Positions 6,325-60,480 of a stretch of DNA of 64,000 nt are shown here, piece by piece. A program made the translations under genes and the position numbers. Source of the stretch: Alphaproteobacteria bacterium (GTDB lineage: Bacteria; Pseudomonadota; Alphaproteobacteria; Rs-D84); assembly GCA_017443235.1 (NCBI GenBank), contig JAFSOV010000004.1, forward strand, positions 974 to 64,973, written 5' to 3'. The stretch's first letter is position 1; every line of letters begins with the position of its first letter. The notes under the pieces are model-generated. The model made no database searches and had not been told where the DNA came from. It saw only the letters and a list, made by a program, of their open reading frames with translations.

Positions 6325-7323
6325 ATGTCAAAAGTAAAAGTTGCAATAAATGGATTCGGCCGTATTGGACGCCTGGTGCTGCGCGCGGCATTGGAATCGG
6401 GGCGCAGTGATATTGAATTTGTCGCCGTCAATGATTTGGCACCCGCGGAACAGAACGCATATTTGTTACAGTATGATTCTGTGCACGGCAATTTGCCGAT
6501 GGATGTAAAATTGGTCGGCGACACAATTATTGTTGGAAAACATAAAATAAAATGCATTTCTGAAAAAGACCCAACAAAACTGCCTTGGAAAAAGATGGGG
6601 ATTGATGTGGTTATGGAATGCACAGGGATTTTCACCGCGGCGGACCGGGCGCGCGTTCATATCGATGCGGGTGCAAAGCGTGTTTTGGTTTCTGCACCTT
6701 CGGCGGGTGCCGATAAAACAATCGTGTATGGGGTAAATGAAAAAACATTGACAAAAAAAGACATCATTGTATCAAACGCGTCTTGCACAACGAATTGCCT
6801 GGCGCCGGTTGTTGCGGTGCTGGATAAAAAATTTGGCATCACATCGGGTTGGATGACAACCGTTCACGCATACACCGGCGACCAACAATTGTTGGATAAA
6901 AATCACAAAGATTTTCGACGCGCACGTGCGGCGAACCTGTCTATGATTCCAACCAGTACCGGCGCCGCCAAGGCCATCGGGTTGGTACTGCCGAAATTGG
7001 CGGGCAAATTGGACGGCATTGCGATTCGCGTCCCAACGCCGGACGTGTCGGTTGTTGAATTGGTTGTCAATTTGGCAAAGCCCGCAACGGTAGATTCGGT
7101 TAACGCCGCAATGCGCGCAAATGTATCAAACATACTGGGGTATAACGAAATGCCGTTGGTGTCGGTTGACTTTACGCACGATGCGCACAGTTCGATATTT
7201 GATGCGGGCCAGACGCACGTTTTGGATAAAAACCTGGTTCACGTGACCGCGTGGTATGACAACGAATGGGGATTTTCAAATCGTATGAGTGACACCGCCG
7301 TTGCAATGGGTAAATTGATTTAA
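6325..7323 (+). CDS. gap: glyceraldehyde-3-phosphate dehydrogenase
   Basis: NGFGRIGR Rossmann start, active-site SNASCTTNCLAP, WYDNEWG. Confidence 0.95.
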   Translation: MSKVKVAINGFGRIGRLVLRAALESGRSDIEFVAVNDLAPAEQNAYLLQYDSVHGNLPMDVKLVGDTIIVGKHKIKCISEKDPTKLPWKKMGIDVVMECTGIFTAADRARVHIDAGAKRVLVSAPSAGADKTIVYGVNEKTLTKKDIIVSNASCTTNCLAPVVAVLDKKFGITSGWMTTVHAYTGDQQLLDKNHKDFRRARAANLSMIPTSTGAAKAIGLVLPKLAGKLDGIAIRVPTPDVSVVELVVNLAKPATVDSVNAAMRANVSNILGYNEMPLVSVDFTHDAHSSIFDAGQTHVLDKNLVHVTAWYDNEWGFSNRMSDTAVAMGKLI

Positions 7324-7343
7324 TTTACAATCACAACAAAACA

Positions 7344-7371
7344 CCACGAATATTTTTTCGTGGTTTTTTTG
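7344..7371 (+). terminator. intrinsic terminator after gap
   Basis: CCACGAA-loop-TTCGTGG followed by T7. Confidence 0.6.
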
Positions 7372-7455
7372 TTGCCGTAATATATTTTTATGATATAAAT
7401 AAATTGAGGGGTCATAAGAATACAAGCCATAACGATACACCAAAAGGATTTTAAT

Positions 7456-9409: not shown

Positions 9410-9660
9410 TTGCCTTGTTGTTGTCTTTTCGTTTAACATCGATATGAGCCAAATGGGAATTTGGTTCGGGGCTGTGGTAGGCCCACGCTAGTTCGGTGCA
9501 ATGCATCGTAATCCATTGGATTCTCATGTTTTTGCACCGTCGTAATGTCCCCGACTGTGGTCGGGGTGCGGGTGGCGTATATCAAAAGGTCATCTGGATC
9601 GTTAACTAGCGTGATTTACCAACACCCCGACCGTCAATTCCCCTTTGACGGTTTCTTTAT
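9410..9660 (+). promoter_or_regulatory. type I structured leader, copy A (promoter, ~200-nt RNA, terminator-like hairpin)
   Basis: TTGCCT-18-TAACAT promoter. Shares TTGGTTCGGGGCTGT..GCCCA..TTCGGTGCA and a compensated long-range helix with 32424-32680. Ends with ACCGTCAA-loop-TTGACGGT plus a T-rich tail. Confidence 0.55.
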
Positions 9661-9677
9661 GAAAACAGGGGAATTTT

Positions 9678-10652
9678 ATGAAAAAATTTGGGATTATCAT
9701 TTGTGGCATTTTTATGATTTTTTCTGCATTTGCCATGGGTGAAAATGTTCCAACATCCAAGAATTATGTGGATACCGCCGTTGCGGTAAAACAAGACAAA
9801 ATTTTGGCAAATGATGGTACGGCCCAGGTTTTAACCAACACGGGCACCGCGGGCGAAGTTGGGACAAAAGAAATCTATGATTCCACCGGTTCATACTTGG
9901 CACAAACCGATGCATTGATTGACGCCGTCACAATGAACACGGCGGTTCAAAACGCAATCAACAGTGAATTCCAATGCATTGAATACAACCCGAACGACCC
10001 AACCGATTGTTGGATAATGGATATTTTCGGCGAAACCGGGCAATCCATTTTACCATCGGGATACACCGCATTGGAATATATCGCCGGCACCGGAACACAA
10101 TACATTGATACGGGCGTTATACCAGATAATCTTACAGGCATTGATATAAAATTCAATAAATCCGCCACTGGAGACCAAGTCGTTTTTGGGATACTATCAT
10201 CGGTGACCACCCAACAATTATATATTAATCCTGTGGGCGGCAGTATTTATCTGCCATTTGCTGAAAAATATAATCAAGCGAGCGCCGGTATCCCGTTCAG
10301 CAACAATCTCGATTTTGATGTAAAGATTAATTATTTGAATGACAGGAAACGATATGTCAATGCCCGAAAAGCACCGGATATAAACAAAACACTAATTTCG
10401 CCGGAATATACAATGTACCTGTTTGCGGGCCATAGCGCAGGCGGGGCCGCCCGATGGTTTTTTAATGGTAAAGTTTATTATCTTAAAATCACAAACGGCG
10501 CCACAATTACGCATGATTTCGTTCCCGCGCGGCGCGATAGTGACGATAAAATTGGAATGTATGATATGGTCAGTGGCACATTCTTTACCAACTCTGGCAG
10601 TGGTGAATTTATTGCCGGGCCGGTTGTGAATTTGTATGTACCAAGCAACTAA
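9678..10652 (+). CDS. secreted protein, YVD-motif family, with a C-terminal tail-fibre-like module
   Basis: Signal peptide, then TSKNYVDTAVAVKQDKI and QCIEYN..DC blocks shared with 24672-25085 and 60538-61164. RBS AGGGGAA. Confidence 0.7.
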   Translation: MKKFGIIICGIFMIFSAFAMGENVPTSKNYVDTAVAVKQDKILANDGTAQVLTNTGTAGEVGTKEIYDSTGSYLAQTDALIDAVTMNTAVQNAINSEFQCIEYNPNDPTDCWIMDIFGETGQSILPSGYTALEYIAGTGTQYIDTGVIPDNLTGIDIKFNKSATGDQVVFGILSSVTTQQLYINPVGGSIYLPFAEKYNQASAGIPFSNNLDFDVKINYLNDRKRYVNARKAPDINKTLISPEYTMYLFAGHSAGGAARWFFNGKVYYLKITNGATITHDFVPARRDSDDKIGMYDMVSGTFFTNSGSGEFIAGPVVNLYVPSN

Positions 10653-27579: not shown

Positions 27580-27795
27580 ATGGCAAGTCATACACACGGC
27601 ACAGACCCAATAAAACGCAAAGAAAAACCAACTTTGACACCAAGCAAAAAAGAAGAATTGAATAAGTTGAAAGCCAAATTGGCCGAAGCCGAGGCAAAAT
27701 TGAAAAAAGATCCGGACAATAAAAGGCTGAAGGAAATCACGAAAAATTTGAAGCAAATGTTCGAATTGGAACGTGAACGCGGATATTCTTGCTAA
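27580..27795 (+). CDS. small lysine-rich coiled-coil protein
   Basis: 71-aa ORF. Its TAA overlaps the lgt ATG (TAATG). Confidence 0.4.
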   Translation: MASHTHGTDPIKRKEKPTLTPSKKEELNKLKAKLAEAEAKLKKDPDNKRLKEITKNLKQMFELERERGYSC

Positions 27796-28589
27796 TGTCT
27801 ATTGTAATAAACCCGATTTCACCCGTCGCATTTACGGTATTTGGATTGCCGATACGGTGGTATGCCTTGGCGTATATTGCGGCGTTCGTGGTCGGGTATT
27901 TTTTATTCCGCACCTTTGCACGCCGCCCCGATAGTGGCCTTGATATGTCGCGTCACGAATTGGACGATTTGTTTTCGTGGATAATATTGGGTGTGATAAT
28001 CGGCGGGCGATTGGGATATGTACTGTTTTATAACCTGCCGTTCTTTATATCGCACCCGTTGGAAATTTTTGCTGTATGGCACGGCGGGATGAGTTTTCAT
28101 GGGGGATTGGCTGGTGTGGTTGCGGCAACGTTTTTATTCACACGTTCATGGTCGCGGGGGCTGCATGTATTGGATTTAATATCGGTTGTGACGCCGATAG
28201 GACTATTTTTTGGTCGTGTTGCGAATTTTATAAATATGGAAATTATGGGTCGGCCCACAGATTCAAGTATTGGCGTATTTTTTAATGGCGTGTCCGATGT
28301 GCCACGACACGCAAGTCCATTGTACGAGGCCGCAACCGAAGGCCTGTTGTTGGCTATAATAATGCTGGGGCTGTATCGATACACAAAATTGCGCAAATAC
28401 CCGGGTGCACTGTGTGGGGCGATGGCGATGTTCTATGCGGTGTTCCGTATTATATGTGAACAGTTTCGTGCACCCGATGCCCAGATTGGATTCTTGACTT
28501 CGTGGGGTTTAACCATGGGCGGGTTGCTGTCGGGGGTGCTGTTTCTATGCGGCGCGGGGCTGTTTTTTGCGGCGATACGTCGCAGATAA
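27795..28589 (+). CDS. lgt: prolipoprotein diacylglyceryl transferase
   Basis: HGGLAG and GRVANFINMEIMGRPT signature; polytopic membrane protein. Confidence 0.9.
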   Translation: MSIVINPISPVAFTVFGLPIRWYALAYIAAFVVGYFLFRTFARRPDSGLDMSRHELDDLFSWIILGVIIGGRLGYVLFYNLPFFISHPLEIFAVWHGGMSFHGGLAGVVAATFLFTRSWSRGLHVLDLISVVTPIGLFFGRVANFINMEIMGRPTDSSIGVFFNGVSDVPRHASPLYEAATEGLLLAIIMLGLYRYTKLRKYPGALCGAMAMFYAVFRIICEQFRAPDAQIGFLTSWGLTMGGLLSGVLFLCGAGLFFAAIRRR

Positions 28590-28724: not shown

Positions 28725-28744
28725 TTTGATTCCTTTTTTTGTTA

Positions 28745-28953
28745 AAAAAGAAACCACCCGAAATAAATTCAAAGTGGTTGGAGTCTTAACGACAATCAAG
28801 CGAATTGCTGTGCTTATTCAGTATATTCACACACTCCAACCAGTGGTTGGAGATTTTTGTGTCCCTCCGGACACGCCTGACATGGGCGTTAAGACCCACA
28901 GACGGAACGCCCGTCTGTGATTTCATAATAACATTTTATATGCGAAAAGGCAA
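28745..28953 (-). promoter_or_regulatory. type II (CTCCAACC) leader/sRNA module, copy a
   Basis: On the minus strand: TTGCCT-17-TATTAT, hairpin CAGACGG/CCGTCTG, CTCCAACC-AGT-GGTTGGAG hairpin, a second CTCCAACC overlapping the terminator AACCAC..GTGGTT, then a T-run. Confidence 0.6.
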
Positions 28954-29116: not shown

Positions 29117-29191
29117 GGCCCCATCGTCTAATGGTTAGGACACCGCCCTTTCAAGGCGAGAATCCCGGTTCAAATCCGAGTGGGGCTGCCA
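29117..29191 (+). tRNA. tRNA-Glu (UUC)
   Basis: GGCCCCATCGTCTAATGGTTAGGACACCGCCCTTTCAAGGCG..TTCAAATCC..TGGGGCTGCCA. One mismatch each in the anticodon stem and the T stem. Confidence 0.85.
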
Positions 29192-30737
29192 AATCAGAGT
29201 CACCGTCCATTTGGGCGGTGTTTTCGTTGAAAATCTGCACTGTTGAGGCGGTTCGAAATCCTGATTCTTGGTGATAGACAGGTTTTTCAGTAAAAATCAA
29301 CCTAACAAGACGTCGTTTTTGCGAAATTGTGCCGCGTGACCATAGTAAATCAGGCCTTTTGAAAAATTCGCGTCCGTTTTCAATGGCGGTTCGAAATTTT
29401 TCTGCGACATTGGATGCAGTGTTATTTTCCAATTGTTTTTCCAATGCTTGCTTGTTGGCATTTAGTTCTTTAATTTGCCCCTGGTATATGTTCGCCAAAT
29501 CTTTATCACCACTTGCCAGAGCATTCATAACCAGCGCAGTGATTCCCGATATTTGTTGTTTTATTTTTGTTATTTTATCGTGCGTCTTGTTGTTTGCGCT
29601 GGTTATTTCGTTTTCCCTAATTTTGCCTATCTTTGTAATCATGGCACAGCATAAATCAAGAAACTTGTCTGTCGCTTTTAATGTGCGCAGTTTTTCCACA
29701 AAAGCATCTTCAATAAGGTTCCTGCGTATGGATTTTTTGTGAAACACGCATTCTTTGTTATGGCACCTGTAATATGGATGCATACACCCCCTTGTTCCGC
29801 TTTTCGCGTAATAGCCGGTTAATGGATGCCCACAATGCTCACAAAACACCTCGTGTCGCAATGGAAAATCATCGGCAATAGTGGATTTATATGATTTATA
29901 ACCCCCTTTGTCTAATCTGGCTTGAACAGCATCGAACAAATCCATTGGTATCAGTTTAACCATTTTCCATTCTTGTAGTGGTATTTCCCATTTGTCATAA
30001 GCAAACACACCAGTATAAACCACATTGTGCAGGATATCATTTGCGGCTGTATCGGTTATTCTGCGACCGTTCCATGCATCATGCGAATTTAAGAAATCTG
30101 CGACCGCATGTTTGGTTGCCAATTCGCCACTGGCATATTTGGCGAATGCTTGCTGTATCAATGTGGCCTTTGGTTCGTCTGGCACCAAAATAACCTTGTT
30201 ATGTTCATCTTTTTGCCTTTTTAACCCCAATGGCGGATTTAGTGGGTAATAACCAAGTGTCATTAAAGAGCGCATAGAGGCTCTGGTCTTTTCTGATAGT
30301 TCGTCACTAAACCGTCGTGCATTTAGTATGTCTATTCCGCGCACAAAACGACCTGTGGCATTGTTCTGTGATTTTCCGGCCACGACCGTTAATAGTTCTA
30401 TATCGTATTTTATAACCAAGTTTTCAAACCGGCTAAACACCTCTAAATTGCGCGATAATCGCGACATATCAAAGAACAAGACCCTTATTCGCTTGTTTTT
30501 CTGTTCTTGGGTTATATATTCCATCATCATGTCAAGCCCCGGGCGGTCAGTTTTCCACCCAGATACCCCGTCTTCATAAAAGAACTTATCAATTATAAAT
30601 CCGTTGTTTTTCGCATAATCCAAACATGCCTGTTTTTGTGACATGATGGTTTCTTTCTTTGCTTGTTTGTCTGATGAAACACGGCACAGACACAATGTTT
30701 CAATTGGTTTTTCTTTGGTTGGTATATATTTTTTCAT
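29151..30737 (-). CDS. large serine recombinase
   Basis: 528 aa. Resolvase catalytic block LCRVSSDKQ and YEDGVSG, recombinase domain, Zn-ribbon CEHCGH..C..C, coiled-coil tail. The 3' end runs into tRNA-Glu. Confidence 0.85.
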   Translation of the reverse strand: MKKYIPTKEKPIETLCLCRVSSDKQAKKETIMSQKQACLDYAKNNGFIIDKFFYEDGVSGWKTDRPGLDMMMEYITQEQKNKRIRVLFFDMSRLSRNLEVFSRFENLVIKYDIELLTVVAGKSQNNATGRFVRGIDILNARRFSDELSEKTRASMRSLMTLGYYPLNPPLGLKRQKDEHNKVILVPDEPKATLIQQAFAKYASGELATKHAVADFLNSHDAWNGRRITDTAANDILHNVVYTGVFAYDKWEIPLQEWKMVKLIPMDLFDAVQARLDKGGYKSYKSTIADDFPLRHEVFCEHCGHPLTGYYAKSGTRGCMHPYYRCHNKECVFHKKSIRRNLIEDAFVEKLRTLKATDKFLDLCCAMITKIGKIRENEITSANNKTHDKITKIKQQISGITALVMNALASGDKDLANIYQGQIKELNANKQALEKQLENNTASNVAEKFRTAIENGREFFKRPDLLWSRGTISQKRRLVRLIFTEKPVYHQESGFRTASTVQIFNENTAQMDGDSDLAAPLGFEPGFSP

Positions 30738-32124: not shown

Positions 32125-32423
32125 GTCATCTTAAAATCCTCGCAACTCCTTTGTGACTGTGGTTTTGAACGATTTTTATTGTAGTTAAAAAACGATAAAA
32201 TGTCAAGTCCTTGATGCATATTTTTTGTTTTTGTCAGTTTTCCGGTATGTTGACGTTGTTGCATTAAAGTATGAACGATTCGTAAACGGTGTTATTTTGC
32301 CTCGACATGCGATGTCTTGGTTTTGAAATAGTCAGTATGCCGAAAAACAAAACATTGCGACGTCGGGCACGACAATGCGATTGTCGCATATCAAATATAA
32401 AACCAGTGCAATTAACATATATT

Positions 32424-32680
32424 TTGACTTTTTTCCTGTTTGCGTGTAAAGTTTTTCATGAATCCAAGAGATTGGGTTCGGGGCTGTCACAAGCCCATCT
32501 CATTCGGTGCATAAGCATCGTTAAATTGTTAGCATGGCGCGTTTGCGCCGGCTTTCCCCGCATGGTCGGGGAGTCGTGGTTATACAATAGGGGTAACCCG
32601 AAACCCACGAAATCAATAATGAGATGATTGTGAACTCCCCGGCCGTCAATCTTTTGGCGGTCGATTTTATTTAACCAAAA
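32424..32680 (+). promoter_or_regulatory. type I structured leader, copy B
   Basis: TTGACT-17-TAAAGT promoter. Same conserved blocks as 9410-9660. Helix CATCTCATT/AATGAGATG replaces ACGCTAGTT/AACTAGCGT. Terminator-like CCGTCAA..TTGGCGG plus T-rich tail. Confidence 0.55.
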
Positions 32681-32688
32681 GGGAAAAT

Positions 32689-33333
32689 ATGAAAAAATTA
32701 TTGTGTGCTTTGGGCTTGCTATGTGTGTTGTGTGCATGTGACCGAAACGAAAACAAAAAGCAACAATCACCACTAGTAAAAAGTGTAATAACTTTTCGGG
32801 CTTTTCATCAGGATGTTTGCAAATGTGTTCTTGGGAATATGCCGACATTTGTTAAGACACTTAATTCAGACGGGTATAATAATATCAATGCTTTTTGTTT
32901 TTGGGGTGCATATTTTTGTTCAAACCAAAAATCAGACGAAACCATTATGGCCGCTGCTAAAGTCATTGACGGTTTAGACAGTTTCCAATGCGCCGATCCG
33001 CACTTTAATGAAAGGTTTGTTGCGGCCAGTGAAAAGGCAGGGGTCGATGCTTTGTGTCCCGCTATATGGCAACAAGATAATGTTTTGTATTTAAGCAAAT
33101 TGGCGCATTTAACAAATTCGTGTCAGTCAACATTTGGTAAAAGCGAAATCGAATGTTTGTGTGCGGTTGATAATTATATGTCGCATTTGTCTGAAGCCGA
33201 ATTCAAAGCATTAAAAAGTTATGGGCAATTCTTTCCTGGTTATGGGTGGATGGCGAATACCAAAGCAAAACAACAAATGACCGTCAGCATAATGACAAAA
33301 ATGCGAAATGCGGTTGCGGCATGTGCAGAATAA
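32689..33333 (+). CDS. cysteine-rich lipoprotein, unknown function
   Basis: Signal peptide with lipobox VLCAC. 214 aa. Confidence 0.6.
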   Translation: MKKLLCALGLLCVLCACDRNENKKQQSPLVKSVITFRAFHQDVCKCVLGNMPTFVKTLNSDGYNNINAFCFWGAYFCSNQKSDETIMAAAKVIDGLDSFQCADPHFNERFVAASEKAGVDALCPAIWQQDNVLYLSKLAHLTNSCQSTFGKSEIECLCAVDNYMSHLSEAEFKALKSYGQFFPGYGWMANTKAKQQMTVSIMTKMRNAVAACAE

Positions 33334-33350
33334 AAACAAAGGAGTAAAAA

Positions 33351-34154
33351 ATGAAAAAATATATTTTGTTCACAATAGGTTCCGTCTCATTGGCGGCATG
33401 TCAGTTTGACGGGATTAGCCCAGAGCAATGCAATGATTATGTTAATTCACTAACAAGCTCTGGAGATATAATTCAAGTTTTAGATACATATATTGAATAT
33501 AGAGATTGGTGGAAATCTTCTAATGATGCTAAAACTCAACAATCTCTGCAAAGAAGTTGTTGGAACGATTTTTTAAGAAGACAAGATATAGATTATACAT
33601 GTTTGGATAAAGACAATGTTTCAGATGAATGTATTTTATATCGTCGAAATAATAAATACGAATCAGAATTTAATTTTTACGATTTTACAAAGTTTTTATC
33701 GCAAGATAGTTATATAAAAAATGAAACAGATTTTAAGATGGCTCTAGAATACTATGAAATAAACATAAGGAAATGTGAAGCACTTATTGAAAAAACCAGT
33801 GTAGAGAAAGAAGATTGTGTAAATAATATCAAAGACGATTTGCGTAATTTTTCTAAACATGGGATGTTGCTGTGTAGAAACAGTCTAAAAAAAGAATATA
33901 GAGCCATGTTAAAAGAGCAAGGTCAGTGGTATAGGTGGGCAATAAACCATGATCCGTATGGGTTTTATAAAGAATGGGTCGCGATGACCGGTATTTCGGG
34001 ATATGAAGCCCAAGTATCCATGTATCAACCCGTATATAGCAAAAGTTCCGCCGCAGAAAGGGTAAAAGAAGAAATTGAAAGCTGGGGTAAAGAACATTTG
34101 TGCAAAACTACAAACTATTTGACAGATCTAAAAACATTAGGCTTTTATATGTGA
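33351..34154 (+). CDS. lipoprotein, unknown function
   Basis: Signal peptide with lipobox SLAAC, RBS AAGGAG. Very AT-rich. Confidence 0.6.
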   Translation: MKKYILFTIGSVSLAACQFDGISPEQCNDYVNSLTSSGDIIQVLDTYIEYRDWWKSSNDAKTQQSLQRSCWNDFLRRQDIDYTCLDKDNVSDECILYRRNNKYESEFNFYDFTKFLSQDSYIKNETDFKMALEYYEINIRKCEALIEKTSVEKEDCVNNIKDDLRNFSKHGMLLCRNSLKKEYRAMLKEQGQWYRWAINHDPYGFYKEWVAMTGISGYEAQVSMYQPVYSKSSAAERVKEEIESWGKEHLCKTTNYLTDLKTLGFYM

Positions 34155-34187: not shown

Positions 34188-34292
34188 ATGGAAAAGATTA
34201 TACTAAAAACACTGAAACGGGTATTAGTTTTGATTGGGTTGATATTACCATTGATAATAATGATAGCGATGATAAACGCATTACTTAAATAA
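34188..34292 (+). CDS. possible 34-aa hydrophobic peptide
   Basis: RBS AGGAGA. MEKIILKTLKRVLVLIGLILPLIIMIAMINALLK is a single TM helix. Confidence 0.3.
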   Translation: MEKIILKTLKRVLVLIGLILPLIIMIAMINALLK

Positions 34293-35882: not shown

Positions 35883-36511
35883 CTGTACTTATCCCCCCCA
35901 CCCCCCTATGGGGGTAGTGCTTGAATTGTGCGATATATATCAAAGAATGCTTTTCTTTACATGGCATGCCATTAAGTTATGGTTCACGTTATGGGTATTA
36001 TCTTAACCTTTATATCCCATCTATACCCTTGTTATCATCCCTGGTTAGAATATCGTTCTGGATTATATTTATTTGGTTTTGTGGGGTTTGCGTTTGTGTG
36101 TGTTTGTATCGGGCATAAAGTGCAAAATCAACATCCATTAGGGATTCTGCGATATTTATAGTTTGCTCAATAAACCGGTTCAAATTTGTAAGGTCTTGGG
36201 CTGCCAAAATAAAAAGACCACCATTTTGGTGGTCGTTTTATTTTGTTCAACCCCCGAATTTGAACCGCGGTTCACAATGAGTAAGCGAAAACGAACGAAG
36301 CGAAGTTTGAGCGCCCGGGCCCCGCAAAATTGTAAAATTTTGTGGGTGGGCTTACGAATGCCCCGCAGGCGCAAGCCGAGGGAAATCCGAGTGGGACAAT
36401 TACGAAAATCTTAAAAAATCGACAGATGGAGATTTTTTTGATTTTCGTTATTGGGGATGTCCGTTCTTGACGAGTTTTTATAGATTTTTATTATTGTGTA
36501 TTGAGGAAGCG

Positions 36512-50604: not shown

Positions 50605-51516
50605 TTACTTTTCTTCATCTGGTAATCTGCCAAACGGAAGGAAATTTATACCACCCGTTATGTTGGCATGTTCCGCGCCACCAATTTGATAATTTCCCAA
50701 TGTTACTATCCACATTAAATTACCGTTATCATCAAATGCACCCCCACCGGAATTACCACTCCAGCCTTGGCAGCCTGTAAACTGACTTTTTGAATTTTGG
50801 GAACATTTAGAAACTTTTAATAAATTGTCTTCAAAACGCCGACGATTGTTCAAAATAAACATTTCTACGCCGTTGCCACGCACCCCACCATCCGCCGTAT
50901 GAACGTCTTGGACCTTAACAACATTCTCGATAAACTTTATATAATCATCCTTAATTTCTTGTATTTCTTGATCACTCATTATTTTTAATGCACCATAACC
51001 AATAATCCGGACATCTTTGGCACCACGGGCAAAAGAATCGTTTATTTTTACATACGCACCATCTAAAACCTCTTTTACACCATCGGCTGAATTTGACCCG
51101 ATTGTTAGCAATCTGTACTTTGCCCAATCCCCATTTGGGTTCGTTCCATCGGCATAATTAAAATTGCCCTTTTTAACCAACCGTGCATTAAGTTCGCGAC
51201 CATTTGGCAACCTGATTCTTACCAAATCATCAATAATATTATCGTGATTAGAATCTACACAATGTTTGGCGGTATATAAAAAATATCCCACATCGTCTTG
51301 TGTTAGCCCTTGTCTTTTTACTATGGTCCCCGAACAATGTGTGCGTTCATTGGCAAAAACAAATGTCGCAACCGCATTATATGGTTTCTCTTGTTTTTGT
51401 TCATCGGTAACATAGCACCGTTTATCAATCGTATACAATTCAGGATTGGTACACGCATCATCAGCCCAAGAAATTAACGGTACGCACAATAAAAACCATA
51501 CGATGATTTGTTTCAT
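50605..51516 (-). CDS. secreted trypsin-like (S1) serine protease
   Basis: Signal peptide, His block TAKHCV, Ser block GWSGNSGGGAF. Confidence 0.75.
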   Translation of the reverse strand: MKQIIVWFLLCVPLISWADDACTNPELYTIDKRCYVTDEQKQEKPYNAVATFVFANERTHCSGTIVKRQGLTQDDVGYFLYTAKHCVDSNHDNIIDDLVRIRLPNGRELNARLVKKGNFNYADGTNPNGDWAKYRLLTIGSNSADGVKEVLDGAYVKINDSFARGAKDVRIIGYGALKIMSDQEIQEIKDDYIKFIENVVKVQDVHTADGGVRGNGVEMFILNNRRRFEDNLLKVSKCSQNSKSQFTGCQGWSGNSGGGAFDDNGNLMWIVTLGNYQIGGAEHANITGGINFLPFGRLPDEEK

Positions 51517-52230: not shown

Positions 52231-53199
52231 CTACTGTTGCAAAGCCTCTTCACACATTTCGGCTTGGCGTATCATTTTTTTTGTTAAAGTTATTAGTGAA
52301 ATATTTAACCCCGTCTCTACCAAACCTGTACCAACATTAACCCCCGACATTATGTTGGCCGTCGTATTCAAATTATTTACACTTTGTTTTTCAGATTCTG
52401 TTAAGGCGATTCTTTGTTCCGCATTCATATATTTATTGGAATTGGATGATGCACTGGCCGCTGTGCCAATACCACCAACCACAACGCCTGCGATTGATGT
52501 GCCCATTACACCTTTCATACGTTTTTCTATTTTTTGTGCATCACTGACGTTTATCTGGTTACACCAGGTCTTTACATTATTGATTTTTTTCGCTATTGGA
52601 TTATCCAACGGACTTACACCCGCAGATGTCAATTTGGCCGGCATATCTGACAAAGATTTTATCATTTTATTGCACGCCTCTATATGCTGAATCAAATCAG
52701 ATTGATTTGCGTTTACGCCCGATATTATTGCAGATGCCAAATTTGTGCCGATTGTTCCGGCCATTAAACCGGTGCGCCAATTACCCAATTTTTTAGAGCG
52801 GTCTAATTTGTTCTGTAATTCCGCAATTTCTGCCATCGGGGAAATTACATCGGTATAAAATTGTTCAAGACTCATTGTTTTGATACTTTCCGCAGAGCAA
52901 CCACCTTTTGCGCATATTTGGTCTATCAATGATTCTATTTCCCTTTCTTCGCTTGATTTCGCTATGCCAACGGCCAACGCACCACCGGCTGCAACGGTTC
53001 CAACCCCGGTTACCGCGGTGTTTATTTTTGATACATTTGAAACTTTTGAAATTTCATCGGATAATCCCGAACAAACTATTTTTGTGGCATTAAACAATTC
53101 TGTTGCGTTGTTAACAATATTGTCGCTATCAGAATCTACTTGGCCGAACGACTGGACGGTTATTAAGCCGAATATACACACAACTATAAATTTTTTCAT
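52231..53199 (-). CDS. secreted protein with four glycine-zipper-like hydrophobic segments
   Basis: Signal peptide. Segments TGVGTVAAGGALAVGIA, GLMAGTIGTNLASAIISG, MGTSIAGVVVGGIGTAA and GVNVGTGLVETGL. Confidence 0.6.
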   Translation of the reverse strand: MKKFIVVCIFGLITVQSFGQVDSDSDNIVNNATELFNATKIVCSGLSDEISKVSNVSKINTAVTGVGTVAAGGALAVGIAKSSEEREIESLIDQICAKGGCSAESIKTMSLEQFYTDVISPMAEIAELQNKLDRSKKLGNWRTGLMAGTIGTNLASAIISGVNANQSDLIQHIEACNKMIKSLSDMPAKLTSAGVSPLDNPIAKKINNVKTWCNQINVSDAQKIEKRMKGVMGTSIAGVVVGGIGTAASASSNSNKYMNAEQRIALTESEKQSVNNLNTTANIMSGVNVGTGLVETGLNISLITLTKKMIRQAEMCEEALQQ

Positions 53200-53237
53200 A
53201 CCTTATCCTTTCTTTACGAATGTTCGATTAGACACGA

Positions 53238-53453
53238 ACAAAAAACCACCAGACAAAGCAAGTGGTTGGAGGTTCAGAACTATTATGCTCGGCAAATAGT
53301 GGGCTTATTCAACATATTCACCGCCCTCCAACCCTGCCTTAGGTTGGAGGTATTTTTTGTCCCCGCGGACACCGAACATAACAAGGGTTCTGACACCCAA
53401 CAAAGCAACCGCCCTGTCAATGGTATGTTACACTAAAATTGGATAAAAATCAA
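53238..53453 (-). promoter_or_regulatory. type II (CTCCAACC) leader/sRNA module, copy c
   Basis: On the minus strand: TTGATT-17-TAACAT, CCTCCAACC-loop-GGTTGGAGG hairpin, GAATAT..GAATAAG box, a second CCTCCAACC overlapping the terminator AACCAC..GTGGTT plus T6. Confidence 0.6.
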
Positions 53454-60210: not shown

Positions 60211-60431
60211 TTGCATTAAAATTACTTTGATGCTAACATTCACTATGTCGGTGGGTGTTCCGCCGATGGGGTGTGAAGACCCCTTTACATGTGGCCCGTA
60301 TGGGCAAAAAACTCCAACCCCAGGGTTGGAGGGATGCGAATAATATAGGGCCCAGCCCATAAAATAAGCACACAATTTGCATGTAAATTGTCTTCAACCT
60401 CCAACCACTCGAATTTTTCGGTGGTTTTTTA
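60211..60431 (+). promoter_or_regulatory. type II (CTCCAACC) leader/sRNA module, copy d
   Basis: TTGCAT-17-TAACAT, hairpin TCGGTGG/CCGCCGA, GGGGT..ACCCC, CTCCAACC-CCA-GGGTTGGAG, then CCTCCAACCAC overlapping the terminator AACCAC..GTGGTT plus T6. Confidence 0.6.
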
Positions 60432-60480
60432 TTCCCCTTCACACCGTGAAGGGGGGGACCACCGGAGGTGGTGGGGTAGT
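60432..60480. repeat. GC-rich double-hairpin module, variant of 41481-41529
   Basis: CCCCTTCACACCGTGAAGGGGGGGACCACCGGAGGTGGTGGGGTAG. The second stem changes from CCGCG/CGCGG to CCACC/GGTGG. Confidence 0.75.

Follow-up and report, generated by a model that had tools for sequence, protein, structure and literature searches.

A terminator-coupled leader RNA of the phage P1/P7 immI type upstream of two lipoprotein genes in a gut alphaproteobacterium

The segment analysed here comprises 64,000 nucleotides (nt) of contig JAFSOV010000004.1 of an Alphaproteobacteria bacterium (assembly GCA_017443235.1) and is further referred to as the window; all coordinates are those of the window, except where a handle such as L154 names another sequence. 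It carries on its plus strand, at 32424-32680, a structured leader RNA called copy B, located directly upstream of two lipoprotein genes. The leader is a terminator-coupled variant of the c4/a1b1 antisense module of phages, expanded in a gut lineage of bacteria with small genomes. The best reading of copy B is a leader that acts in cis, belongs to the phage-immunity (P1/P7 immI) type and terminates transcription conditionally, a reading to which we give about an even chance. A structured leader had been postulated at this place in a preliminary description of the DNA, and its existence is borne out by the promoter, the terminator and the covariation found in 51 leaders. The label of a chromosomal-type regulatory RNA given to it there is not supported: in architecture the element is a c4-a1b1 plus c4 leader as in immI of phages P1 and P7, and the nearest Rfam relative, sRNA-Xcc1, is an RNA of mobile elements.

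Organization of the copy B leader

Copy B RNA starts at ca. 32459 and ends at ca. 32662-32670, which gives a length of ca. 210 nt. Its promoter is sigma-70-like, and the start coordinate proposed for the element in the preliminary description, 32424, is that of the −35 box. In 60 of 63 homologues a −10-like TAnnnT motif is found no more than 28 nt 5' of the first hairpin, by a loose test. The parts of the element are as follows.

32424-32674, plus strand: copy B as a whole, composed of a promoter, a highly structured RNA and an intrinsic terminator
32424-32452, plus strand: promoter found by the promoter scan, with the −35 box TTGACT (32424-32429), a 17-nt spacer and the −10 box TAAAGT (32447-32452)
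32460-32479, plus strand: P1 hairpin, GAAUCCAA-GAGA-UUGGGUUC, with a GNRA-type loop, counterpart of hairpin 1 of c4-a1b1
32481-32496, plus strand: P3 hairpin, with the stem GGGC/GCCC and the 8-nt loop UGUCACAA, counterpart of hairpin 2 of c4-a1b1
32497-32504, plus strand: site b, AUCUCAUU, the 5' strand of P4, with its partner b' in the P10 loop
32505-32554, plus strand: P5 hairpin (32505-32520) and the optional variable P6 region
32555-32562, plus strand: strand C1, UCCCCGCA, whose local pairing with G2 is P7, the proposed anti-antiterminator
32564-32573, plus strand: strand G2, GGUCGGGGAG, the G-rich 5' strand of P1x, which is the closing helix of the three-way junction
32574-32610, plus strand: P8/P9 arm, with the internal loop UAUACAAUA / GAAA and the GNRA tetraloop cap GUAA
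32611-32633, plus strand: P10 hairpin, AAUCA...UGAUU, with b' (32618-32625) in its loop and a' (32628-32633) directly 3'
32635-32644, plus strand: strand C2, CUCCCCGGCC, the 3' strand of P1x, whose last 4-5 nt form the base of the terminator stem
32641-32674, plus strand: intrinsic terminator, a stem-loop at 32641-32662 followed by a T-rich run (a 10-bp hairpin at 32640-32663 in the terminator scan)

Site a (UCACAA, 32487-32492) is situated inside the P3 loop, and its pairing with a', called P2, joins six bases of this loop with a strand 140 nt downstream. The terminator lies 15 nt 5' of the lipoprotein genes, being followed by AAAAGGGAAAATATG and the ATG at 32689, and no promoter-like site was found by the promoter scan between the terminator and this ATG. 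An open reading frame (ORF) at 32289-32627, already regarded as non-coding in the preliminary description, spans the promoter and the RNA; it is not coding, since homologues differ there by indels of many lengths.

Correspondence with the immI leader

A c4 RNA consists of a P1 stem around P2, usually with a GNRA or UNCG tetraloop, and P3, together with the a' and b' sites; the 3' half of its P1 stem sometimes overlaps a terminator and is then possibly cis-regulatory (Weinberg et al. 2010, PMC2864571). The published a1b1 hairpins combine a stem of 4 bp with loops of 8 nt, e.g., UGUGGUAA (PMC2864571). In the annotated record of phage P1 the order of elements is promoter, a1, b1, C4, a2, b2 and icd-ant.

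Judged by sequence and predicted structure, the leaders of copy B type (type I) and the more divergent type II elements described below correspond to the immI leader part for part. As in immI, a promoter is followed by hairpin 1, hairpin 2 with a 4-bp stem and an 8-nt loop containing a, site b directly 3' of it, a hairpin spacer and a three-way junction. The two adjacent hairpins come with a and b sites complementary to a' and b', and both pairings, a:a' and b:b', covary. The second hairpin of the paralogous copy A, GGGC-UGUGGUAG-GCCC, has the same form as the published a1b1 loops. In the 3' domain P1x encloses P8/P9, with its GNRA cap, and P10, and the a' and b' sites are placed as described for c4; as in C4, the closing stem surrounds a tetraloop-capped hairpin and a hairpin with b' in its loop, after which comes the single-stranded a'. 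A likeness exists also for C1 and P7, as in phage P1 an upstream strand, UUACGCCC (L154, 229-236), is complementary over 8 bp to the 5' strand of the C4 closing stem, GGGCGUGA (248-255), and the hairpin formed by UUACGCCC spans the 5' end of the annotated C4 (NC_005856, 48328-48354).

Distribution of the leader family and covariation

Scanning of species-representative genomes with a pattern of the 5' core yielded 119 loci, of which about 60, and no fewer than 57, are true homologues. All of the latter come from metagenome-assembled genomes (MAGs) of gut or rumen Alphaproteobacteria, assigned to Candidatus Enterousia, to "uncultured Rickettsiales" UMGS860 and to the RGIG and RUG bins, with several leader copies per MAG. 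Enterousia belongs to the uncultured order Rs-D84, whose member genomes have ca. 0.75-1.0 Mb (PMC12306168). A locus labelled Bacteroides fragilis (L078) is nearly identical to alphaproteobacterial contigs and, by this sequence identity, was probably mis-binned. Matches of the 5' pattern in high-GC genomes, e.g., Streptomyces, are due to chance, and so, probably, are two on viral contigs (L120, L121), in which R1, a covariance model restricted to the 3' domain, finds no match. A BLAST search with copy B against plasmids and phages gave no match.

Copy B was described as a paralogue of the element at 9410-9660 (copy A), and this relation stands: the two are 74% identical and have in common a 23-nt core, the pattern of which occurs twice in the window against 0.01 occurrences expected. 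Both fold far better than their dinucleotide shuffles, with z-scores of −5.9 and −7.0.

The alignment of 51 leaders, made with MAFFT, was scored against hand-drawn structures, with 500 shuffles and slid-partner controls. Standard pairs occupy 92.5-93% of the alignment cells, and 36-37 pairs show changes on both sides. None of the 500 shuffles reached any of the observed pairing measures, and when the partner strands were slid by 1-3 columns the pairing was only 29-50%. Such heavy compensatory change is at odds with a recent duplication of the two copies lacking structural covariation, the outcome named beforehand as the one to refute a regulatory leader.

The best-supported helices are P1, P2, P4, P5, P8 and P1x. 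P1 (8 bp) is paired in 96% of cells, with three pairs changed on both sides, and P5 (6 bp) likewise in 96%, with five such pairs; the P6 region is missing from short leader variants. P2 is paired in 99% of cells, and its three variable pairs show 28, 18 and 28 both-side changes. Changes on both sides are found at seven of the eight pairs of P4 (b:b') and at all six pairs of P8, so b' and a' covary with b and a. The 10 bp of P1x are paired in 95.5% of cells, and its column pair 207:285 is paired in all 51 sequences while reading AU in 17, UA in 17, GU in 16 and CG in one. The P3 stem is supported because its fourth pair shifts from C-G to U-A or U-G in copies found independently of the search pattern. 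At least six T residues occur within 12 nt after the terminator stem in 51/51 homologues, and the upper stem pairs of the terminator covary. P1x crosses P2 and P4, which means that these helices either form a pseudoknot or represent alternative states.

An outer helix pairing the 5' GGGG with the CCCC of C2, proposed by RNAfold and RNAalifold, was rejected: it is invariant, the adjacent W (A or U) position pairs with G2, the helix cannot be formed in type II copies, and the local P3 accounts for these bases. In three truncated type I leaders the 5' domain is kept through P5; in two of them (L039, 7638-; L094, 7618-) it is fused straight to a ribosome-binding site (RBS) and a start codon, and in the third (L018, 5394-) to unrelated sequence. 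Having lost both the c4-like domain and the terminator, such leaders could be deletion variants that arose naturally and are "always on".

Mutually exclusive pairings and the proposed switch

G2 is complementary to two strands, the upstream C1 (P7) and the downstream C2 (P1x). P7 is present in the local folds of all 51 leaders, with a mean of −14.0 kcal/mol, and in five of them (L044, L062, L064, L090, L091) C1 and G2 are seen in the alignment to change jointly. The mean for the P1x duplex is −18.4 kcal/mol and for the terminator hairpin −12.0 kcal/mol, the latter dropping to −5.0 kcal/mol without the nucleotides common to C2. The closing helix of the junction and the terminator overlap by 4-5 nt in 51/51 copies, and the C2/terminator overlap is found also in the four type II copies. 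In terms of these modelled pairings, the layout is that of a classical 1:2 / 2:3 / 3:4 attenuator.

According to the proposed mechanism, the strong promoter would give rise to a transcript of ca. 210 nt with a c4-a1b1-like 5' domain carrying a and b and a c4/sRNA-Xcc1-like 3' domain carrying a' and b'. With G2 engaged by C1 in P7, C2 would remain free, the intrinsic terminator of 9-10 bp would be complete and transcription would stop before the lipoprotein RBS. With G2 paired to C2 in P1x, the base of the terminator would be removed and RNA polymerase would read into both lipoprotein genes, probably continuing to 35882. Termination is the predicted default, because the terminating fold is favoured in nested energy models, and for this reason expression of the genes would require some input that stabilises the junction fold. 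Candidate inputs are the removal of C1 by processing, as done by RNase P in the case of P1 C4, a cognate RNA acting through the private a/b sites, a protein, and stabilisation by tertiary or pseudoknot interactions or by ligand contacts. A c4-like release by RNase P would place the processed end at ca. 32563/32564. Conditional termination is the best-supported mechanism, with our confidence in it standing near the midpoint of the scale. The preliminary description stated that the leader controls the lipoprotein genes; the cis position agrees with this, while the control itself we infer from the anatomy.

Two possible triggers found no support. Leader-peptide or ribosome-mediated attenuation was rejected, there being no conserved start codon after the Shine-Dalgarno (SD)-like G2. 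Occupancy of a/b in trans, by which a cognate RNA would flip the switch, is not supported by nearest-neighbour energies, which cannot score a pseudoknot.

A number of results weigh against conditional termination in an immI-type leader. In the nested energy models the terminating fold beats the junction (read-through) fold by 13.3 ± 3.7 kcal/mol, and a lead of 9.2 kcal/mol remains as long as the 3' arm of the terminator has not been transcribed. Masking of a/b in silico led to P1x in only 6/51 leaders and masking of a'/b' in 13/51. The support for the helices is partly conservation and not covariation: the G/C cores of P7 and P1x hardly vary, and neither does the P10 stem, which consequently yields no covariation evidence, and the 5' search pattern forced some alignment columns to be invariant. 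Moreover, the Rfam models do not recognise the element as a c4 RNA. C4 (RF01695, gathering score 45 bits) has no match at E ≤ 10 around copy B and none at E ≤ 0.1 in the whole window, and c4-a1b1 (RF03163, 46.7 bits) has no match in the window, while the positive controls scored 68.8 bits (C4) and 51 bits (c4-a1b1) for phage P1 and 48.4 bits (c4-a1b1) for the Stx2 phage. A model built from 34 published a1b1 sequences, exclusively gamma-proteobacterial and phage ones (R2), has its top window match at 60247-60287 (15.5 bits, rough E of 0.05), which is the 5' domain of a type II element; the type I copies are not significant with it. The element would work in the manner of the c4 / a1b1 / Xcc1 group and is probably a distant relative of it, without being a member by the models of those families.

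Private a/b pairs and the search for targets

Each of the 51 leaders has a distinct a/b pair, and paralogues within one MAG always differ in it. Variability in the alignment peaks at the b and b' columns (1.4 bits per column), G2, C2, P5 and P10 being nearly fixed (0.2-0.5 bits). This diversity fits selection against cross-talk, as in P1/P7 heteroimmunity, and fits also neutral drift in a helix that needs only complementarity.

No general a2/b2 target was found downstream of the leaders. The pairing of a'b' with the own downstream 160 nt has a mean of −9.34 kcal/mol, against −9.22 kcal/mol for non-cognate sequences and −17.4 kcal/mol for the own a/b. A strict cognate a..b site within 2.5 kb occurs in one of the 51 leaders, compared with 1.1% of non-cognate pairs, i.e., at the chance rate. 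This single site belongs to copy B; it falls within the part of the lipoprotein 2 gene that encodes the signal peptide (33371-33392), where UCACAA, 8 nt and GUCUCAUU nearly copy a and b of the leader in the same order; its pairing with b'a' (−17.5 kcal/mol) is on a par with that of the real a/b. It may be a coincidence or a relic a2/b2 site.

As a tentative extension, which we regard as doubtful, the domesticated and multiplied a1b1+c4 module, present here about once per 10 kb, could be the main switch of the secretome, with the private a/b pairs letting the terminated or processed leader RNA of each locus feed back on that locus alone and the whole forming a genome-wide set of independent RNA switches.

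Competing explanations

The element could also be mainly a small-RNA gene, whose constitutive terminator would release a c4/Xcc1-like antisense RNA acting in trans through a'/b', perhaps after processing at the 5' edge of G2, with the genes transcribed only by leaky read-through as in the case of Gifsy-1 IsrK. Its own promoter and terminator, the strong preference for the terminating fold in silico and the one a..b-like site at 33371-33392 in the second lipoprotein gene speak for this explanation, as do the stability of sRNA-Xcc1 at ca. 88-100 nt on Northern blots (PMC2996969) and the activity in trans of the short IsrK isoform (PMC4825925). Nevertheless, a general a2/b2 target is lacking (−9.3 versus −9.2 kcal/mol for non-cognate sequences), the cognate site within 2.5 kb occurs in 1/51 leaders, at the chance rate, and a constitutive terminator needs neither the overlap of 4-5 nt seen in 51/51 leaders nor a conserved competing C1. 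We regard a mainly trans-acting role as rather unlikely. An element without any regulatory role, dispersed as a repeat similar to miniature inverted-repeat transposable elements and containing chance promoter- and terminator-like sequences, is effectively refuted: many copies occur per genome, six of them in the 64-kb window, but neither terminal inverted repeats nor target duplications were seen, the copies differ at 26% of positions with pairing kept by compensatory changes, and their orientation and distance to the downstream start codon are fixed.

Two further explanations retain a terminator-based switch and assign it another effector; we consider each of them improbable. In a ligand-sensing riboswitch the pseudoknotted 5' domain, the junction and the two GNRA loops would constitute an aptamer, and the ligand would stabilise P1x and block termination. 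The compact conserved fold agrees with this, with its invariant junction nucleotides (UAUACAAYA, GAAUCA, UGAUU), two GNRA loops and terminator platform, and so does the presence of many copies per genome before diverse genes for surface and secreted proteins, which is a feature of second-messenger riboswitches. However, the c4-a1b1/c4 antisense system explains all the parts without a ligand, variability peaks in the long-range a/b pairings and not in peripheral helices, type II copies keep the architecture with almost none of the junction sequence, and the downstream genes have no metabolic theme. Alternatively, a lineage-specific RNA-binding or NusG-like factor could set the read-through for a secretome regulon. 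Sequence blocks are conserved across the type I copies preceding genes for exported proteins, and genomes of ca. 1 Mb (PMC12306168) might, as we infer, favour one regulator for many genes. Against a protein-dependent attenuator, no candidate protein was identified, and the type II copies conserve architecture, not sequence. The immI-type leader with conditional termination is the preferred reading.

Downstream genes

The genes following copy B are listed below.

32675-34154, plus strand: RBS and two lipoprotein genes, with the next plus-strand terminator only at 36216
32689-33333, plus strand: lipoprotein gene 1, N-terminus MKKLLCALGLLCVLCAC, signal peptide with a lipobox
33351-34154, plus strand: lipoprotein gene 2, N-terminus MKKYILFTIGSVSLAAC, signal peptide with a lipobox

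The signal peptides with a lipobox confirm the earlier designation of both genes, and the 34-amino-acid hydrophobic ORF mentioned with them is present at 34188-34292. The transcription unit may extend through the Mrr-type endonuclease gene, as there is no plus-strand terminator before 36216. Neither lipoprotein belongs to any Pfam or PHROG family. An identical lipoprotein is encoded, in the same context, on 17 contigs from several samples.

The distance from the T-run to the first ORF is at most a few tens of nt in 45 of 57 homologues. Signal-peptide-like N-termini were recognised by a hydrophobicity screen in 37 of 55 downstream proteins, and lipoboxes are present in many of them. Pfam and PHROG searches with 49 downstream proteins showed almost all of them to be orphans, with no metabolic theme; the exceptions are two family 6 glycosyltransferases (GT6), three Listeria-Bacteroides repeat proteins and one Cro/C1-type helix-turn-helix protein. 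The type I leader precedes the family 6 glycosyltransferase gene in UMGS860-like genomes (Pfam E = 3.5e-23; L001, 7582-; L043, 2724-; L078, 766-). A recurrent family of secreted proteins encoded after type I leaders, without a Pfam family, is marked by the motif ...(A/V)TSKxYVDxxxxxKQDKI... following the signal peptide; its members include the product of the copy A gene (9678-10652) and those at L007, L010, L024, L035, L075, L084, L104 and L114.

The SD regions of the leader-associated genes are rich in GGGA (23/55) and GGGG (20/55), compared with 5/46 and 7/46, respectively, for other long ORFs of the window. These motifs are complementary to CUCCCC of C1 and C2, which is a compositional hint only; pairing of C2 with the downstream SD was not seen in minimum free energy folds.

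Other leader elements in the window

Model R1 finds six elements in the window, i.e., six leader elements in 64 kb: copy B with 89.6 bits, copy A with 73.8 bits and four type II elements with ca. 27-34 bits. The elements other than copy B are as follows.

9410-9674, plus strand: copy A, type I paralogue, with an RNA at ca. 9446-9661, preceding the gene of a secreted 324-amino-acid protein (9678-10652)
28744-28926, minus strand: type II element, R1 26.9 bits (28744-28841), with G2 GGUUGGAG, C1 and C2 CUCCAACC and a different a/b pair
41780-41946, minus strand: type II element, sRNA-Xcc1 34.9 bits, R1 29.5 bits (41780-41878)
53236-53420, minus strand: type II element, R1 34.1 bits (53236-53333), preceding the gene of a signal-peptide protein (52231-53199)
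60247-60434, plus strand: type II element, R1 31.7 bits (60324-60434), R2 15.5 bits with E of ca. 0.05

Type II elements have the type I architecture and almost none of its junction sequence. The P1 hairpin is followed by a second one, with a GGG(G)/CCC(C) stem and an 8-nt loop that pairs with a strand beside C2, the strand after the second hairpin pairs with the P10 loop, and the terminator has AACC in common with C2. C1 and C2 are both CCUCCAACC, facing G2 GGUUGGAGG. In the element at 41780-41946, which precedes the gene of a small protein resembling a helix-turn-helix regulator, for which no Pfam family was found, the loop CUAGAAA pairs with UUUCUAG and AAAAUCAAAA with UUUUGAUUUU. A few predicted viral contigs (L126, L127, L134) carry similar elements. 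Two weak R1 matches were discarded, of which 7299-7373 is a plain terminator and 51232-51336 a coding sequence.

GC-rich palindromes similar to repetitive extragenic palindromic sequences (…CCCCTTCACAACGTGAAGGGG… plus GGACCGCGGGACGCGGTGGGGTAG) are found in intergenic positions at 41479-41529, 42001-42051 and 60437-60480 and in L010, some of them directly after leader terminators.

The tRNA-Glu island and relocation of the leader

Copy B lies in a segment previously described as an island at a tRNA-Glu gene, the edge of which is formed by two features.

29117-29191, plus strand: tRNA-Glu, edge of the island
29151-30737, minus strand: large serine recombinase of 528 amino acids, its 3' end overlapping tRNA-Glu

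The last ca. 13 codons of the recombinase gene overlap the 3' 41 nt of tRNA-Glu, which is consistent with integration into the tRNA gene. The GC content is 0.30-0.42 from ca. 29.2 to 40.5 kb compared with 0.43-0.50 in the flanks, and this low-GC segment also holds Mrr-like endonuclease, YjbR and phage-lysozyme genes. No direct repeats of the 3' end of tRNA-Glu that could serve as attachment (att) sites were found, and for this reason the right end of the island is not defined. The island is thus plausible, the low GC content, the adjoining tRNA-Glu and the recombinase being in favour of it and the missing att repeat and right end not.

Within the island, two paralogous ORFs (39388-39687 and 40368-40667) are 70% identical over 300 nt, and one has a phage-lysozyme domain; another ORF, at 39862-39895, starts with a lipoprotein-like signal sequence similar to that of lipoprotein 1. 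The lgt gene, coding for prolipoprotein diacylglyceryl transferase (27789-28589), is located just upstream of the tRNA pair.

Leader-plus-lipoprotein cassettes 88-92% identical to that of copy B are present in RUG774 (L100) and RUG13256 (L041), where they lie near tRNA-Thr instead, between homologues of the window regions at 48.3 kb (tRNA-Thr) and 53.5 kb. One of the two contains lipoprotein 1 only and the other lipoprotein 2 only. As these cassettes are relocated near tRNA-Thr, the leader and its gene appear to move or recombine as a unit, which favours, of the two possibilities raised in the preliminary description, the one in which the leader travels with secreted-protein cassettes.

Comparison with known systems

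The gut leaders differ from immI in several respects. They have no a2/b2 target at the downstream RBS, their cargo consists of lipoproteins and secreted proteins and not of icd/ant, and the host is an alphaproteobacterium with many chromosomal copies. The overlap with the terminator, found only sometimes in c4 RNAs, is universal in the gut family. Multi-copy chromosomal expansion of a1b1 is not unique to the gut lineage, because Pseudomonas putida KT2440 and P. entomophila have at least ten chromosomal c4-a1b1 copies, in many of which the a1 loop is the same, UUUGACAG (PMC2864571). Unlike the private sites of the gut leaders, the Pseudomonas a1 sites are common to many copies.

The similarity to sRNA-Xcc1 (RF02221, Rfam 15) is confined to the 3' domain. 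Copy B scores 43.0 bits, below the gathering score of 53, while positive controls reach 68.6-73.5 bits; copy A has no match at E ≤ 0.1, and none of 18 homologous loci reaches the threshold. The 3' domain of copy B aligns with the whole model (positions 1-87), its P8/P9 arm corresponding to the first hairpin. The elements in common are the closing helix GGYCGGGG/CCCCGRCC, the first hairpin with the AUACAA / GAA internal loop and a GNRA cap, and the second hairpin; the three-way junction is present in the gut leaders, with P1x and P8 backed by covariation in 51 sequences. Xcc1, an RNA of 88 nt from the closing helix on, lacks the 5' a/b domain.

Bona fide Xcc1 members, like copy B, lie directly upstream of a gene and in the same orientation: before a BRO-family gene on a Pseudomonas aeruginosa plasmid (72.6 bits), before ant in the Stx2 phage WGPS6, and before a putative antirepressor gene in the Aggregatibacter phage S1249. 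Published reports likewise place Xcc1 in APSE phages ahead of an ORF6N gene (10.1101/2020.03.17.996009) and in integron cassettes of Xanthomonas ahead of symE (10.1101/2025.06.18.660453). In contrast to this antirepressor, BRO, ORF6N and symE cargo, the gut leaders precede genes for lipoproteins and secreted proteins that are orphans. The second hairpin of Xcc1 in NZ_CP093017, CCUCUGCUUGG, is complementary in 11/11 positions to the BRO RBS region (L145, 1541-1551 and 1599-1609). In Pseudomonas the second hairpin thus matches the downstream RBS, whereas in the gut leaders b' pairs with the upstream b; the Xcc1/BRO complementarity follows the logic of the phage P1 c4 antisense RNA. This sequence match suggests that Xcc1 is a c4-like, cis-linked translational controller and not a free-standing virulence small RNA.

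In Gifsy-1 IsrK one promoter yields a short terminated RNA and a read-through mRNA, and the short isoform acts in trans, expression being set by RNA-RNA pairing between the isoforms of the locus (PMC4825925). Like isrK (RF01394), whose match overlaps that of c4-a1b1 in the Stx2 phage locus, the gut leaders have their own promoter and terminator and RNA-RNA pairing within one locus. The IsrK terminator, however, follows the a1b1 hairpins, and control is translational, via an upstream ORF, whereas in the gut leaders the terminator comes after the c4-like junction and overlaps it. With attenuators and terminator riboswitches these leaders have in common three mutually exclusive pairings directly before the regulated gene, the 5' arm of the terminator being shared with an alternative helix just upstream of the ORF. 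They differ from classical attenuators in having no conserved start codon for a leader peptide and in a sensor domain that is an antisense-RNA module.

If the proposed mechanism is correct, an antisense-immunity cassette of phages has been rewired into a terminator-based cis switch that appears to be in wide use for exported proteins in genomes of ca. 1 Mb, and the remark of Weinberg et al. (2010) on cis-regulatory c4 RNAs becomes directly testable; the locus-specific a/b pairs would then be a natural set of non-cross-reacting RNA parts. The finding suggests viewing sRNA-Xcc1 anew as a cis-linked controller of the following gene, and it joins three subjects so far treated separately: the c4 immunity RNA of phage P1, sRNA-Xcc1 as an orphan "virulence sRNA" from plant pathogens, and a high-copy leader, hitherto undescribed, from an uncultured gut lineage.

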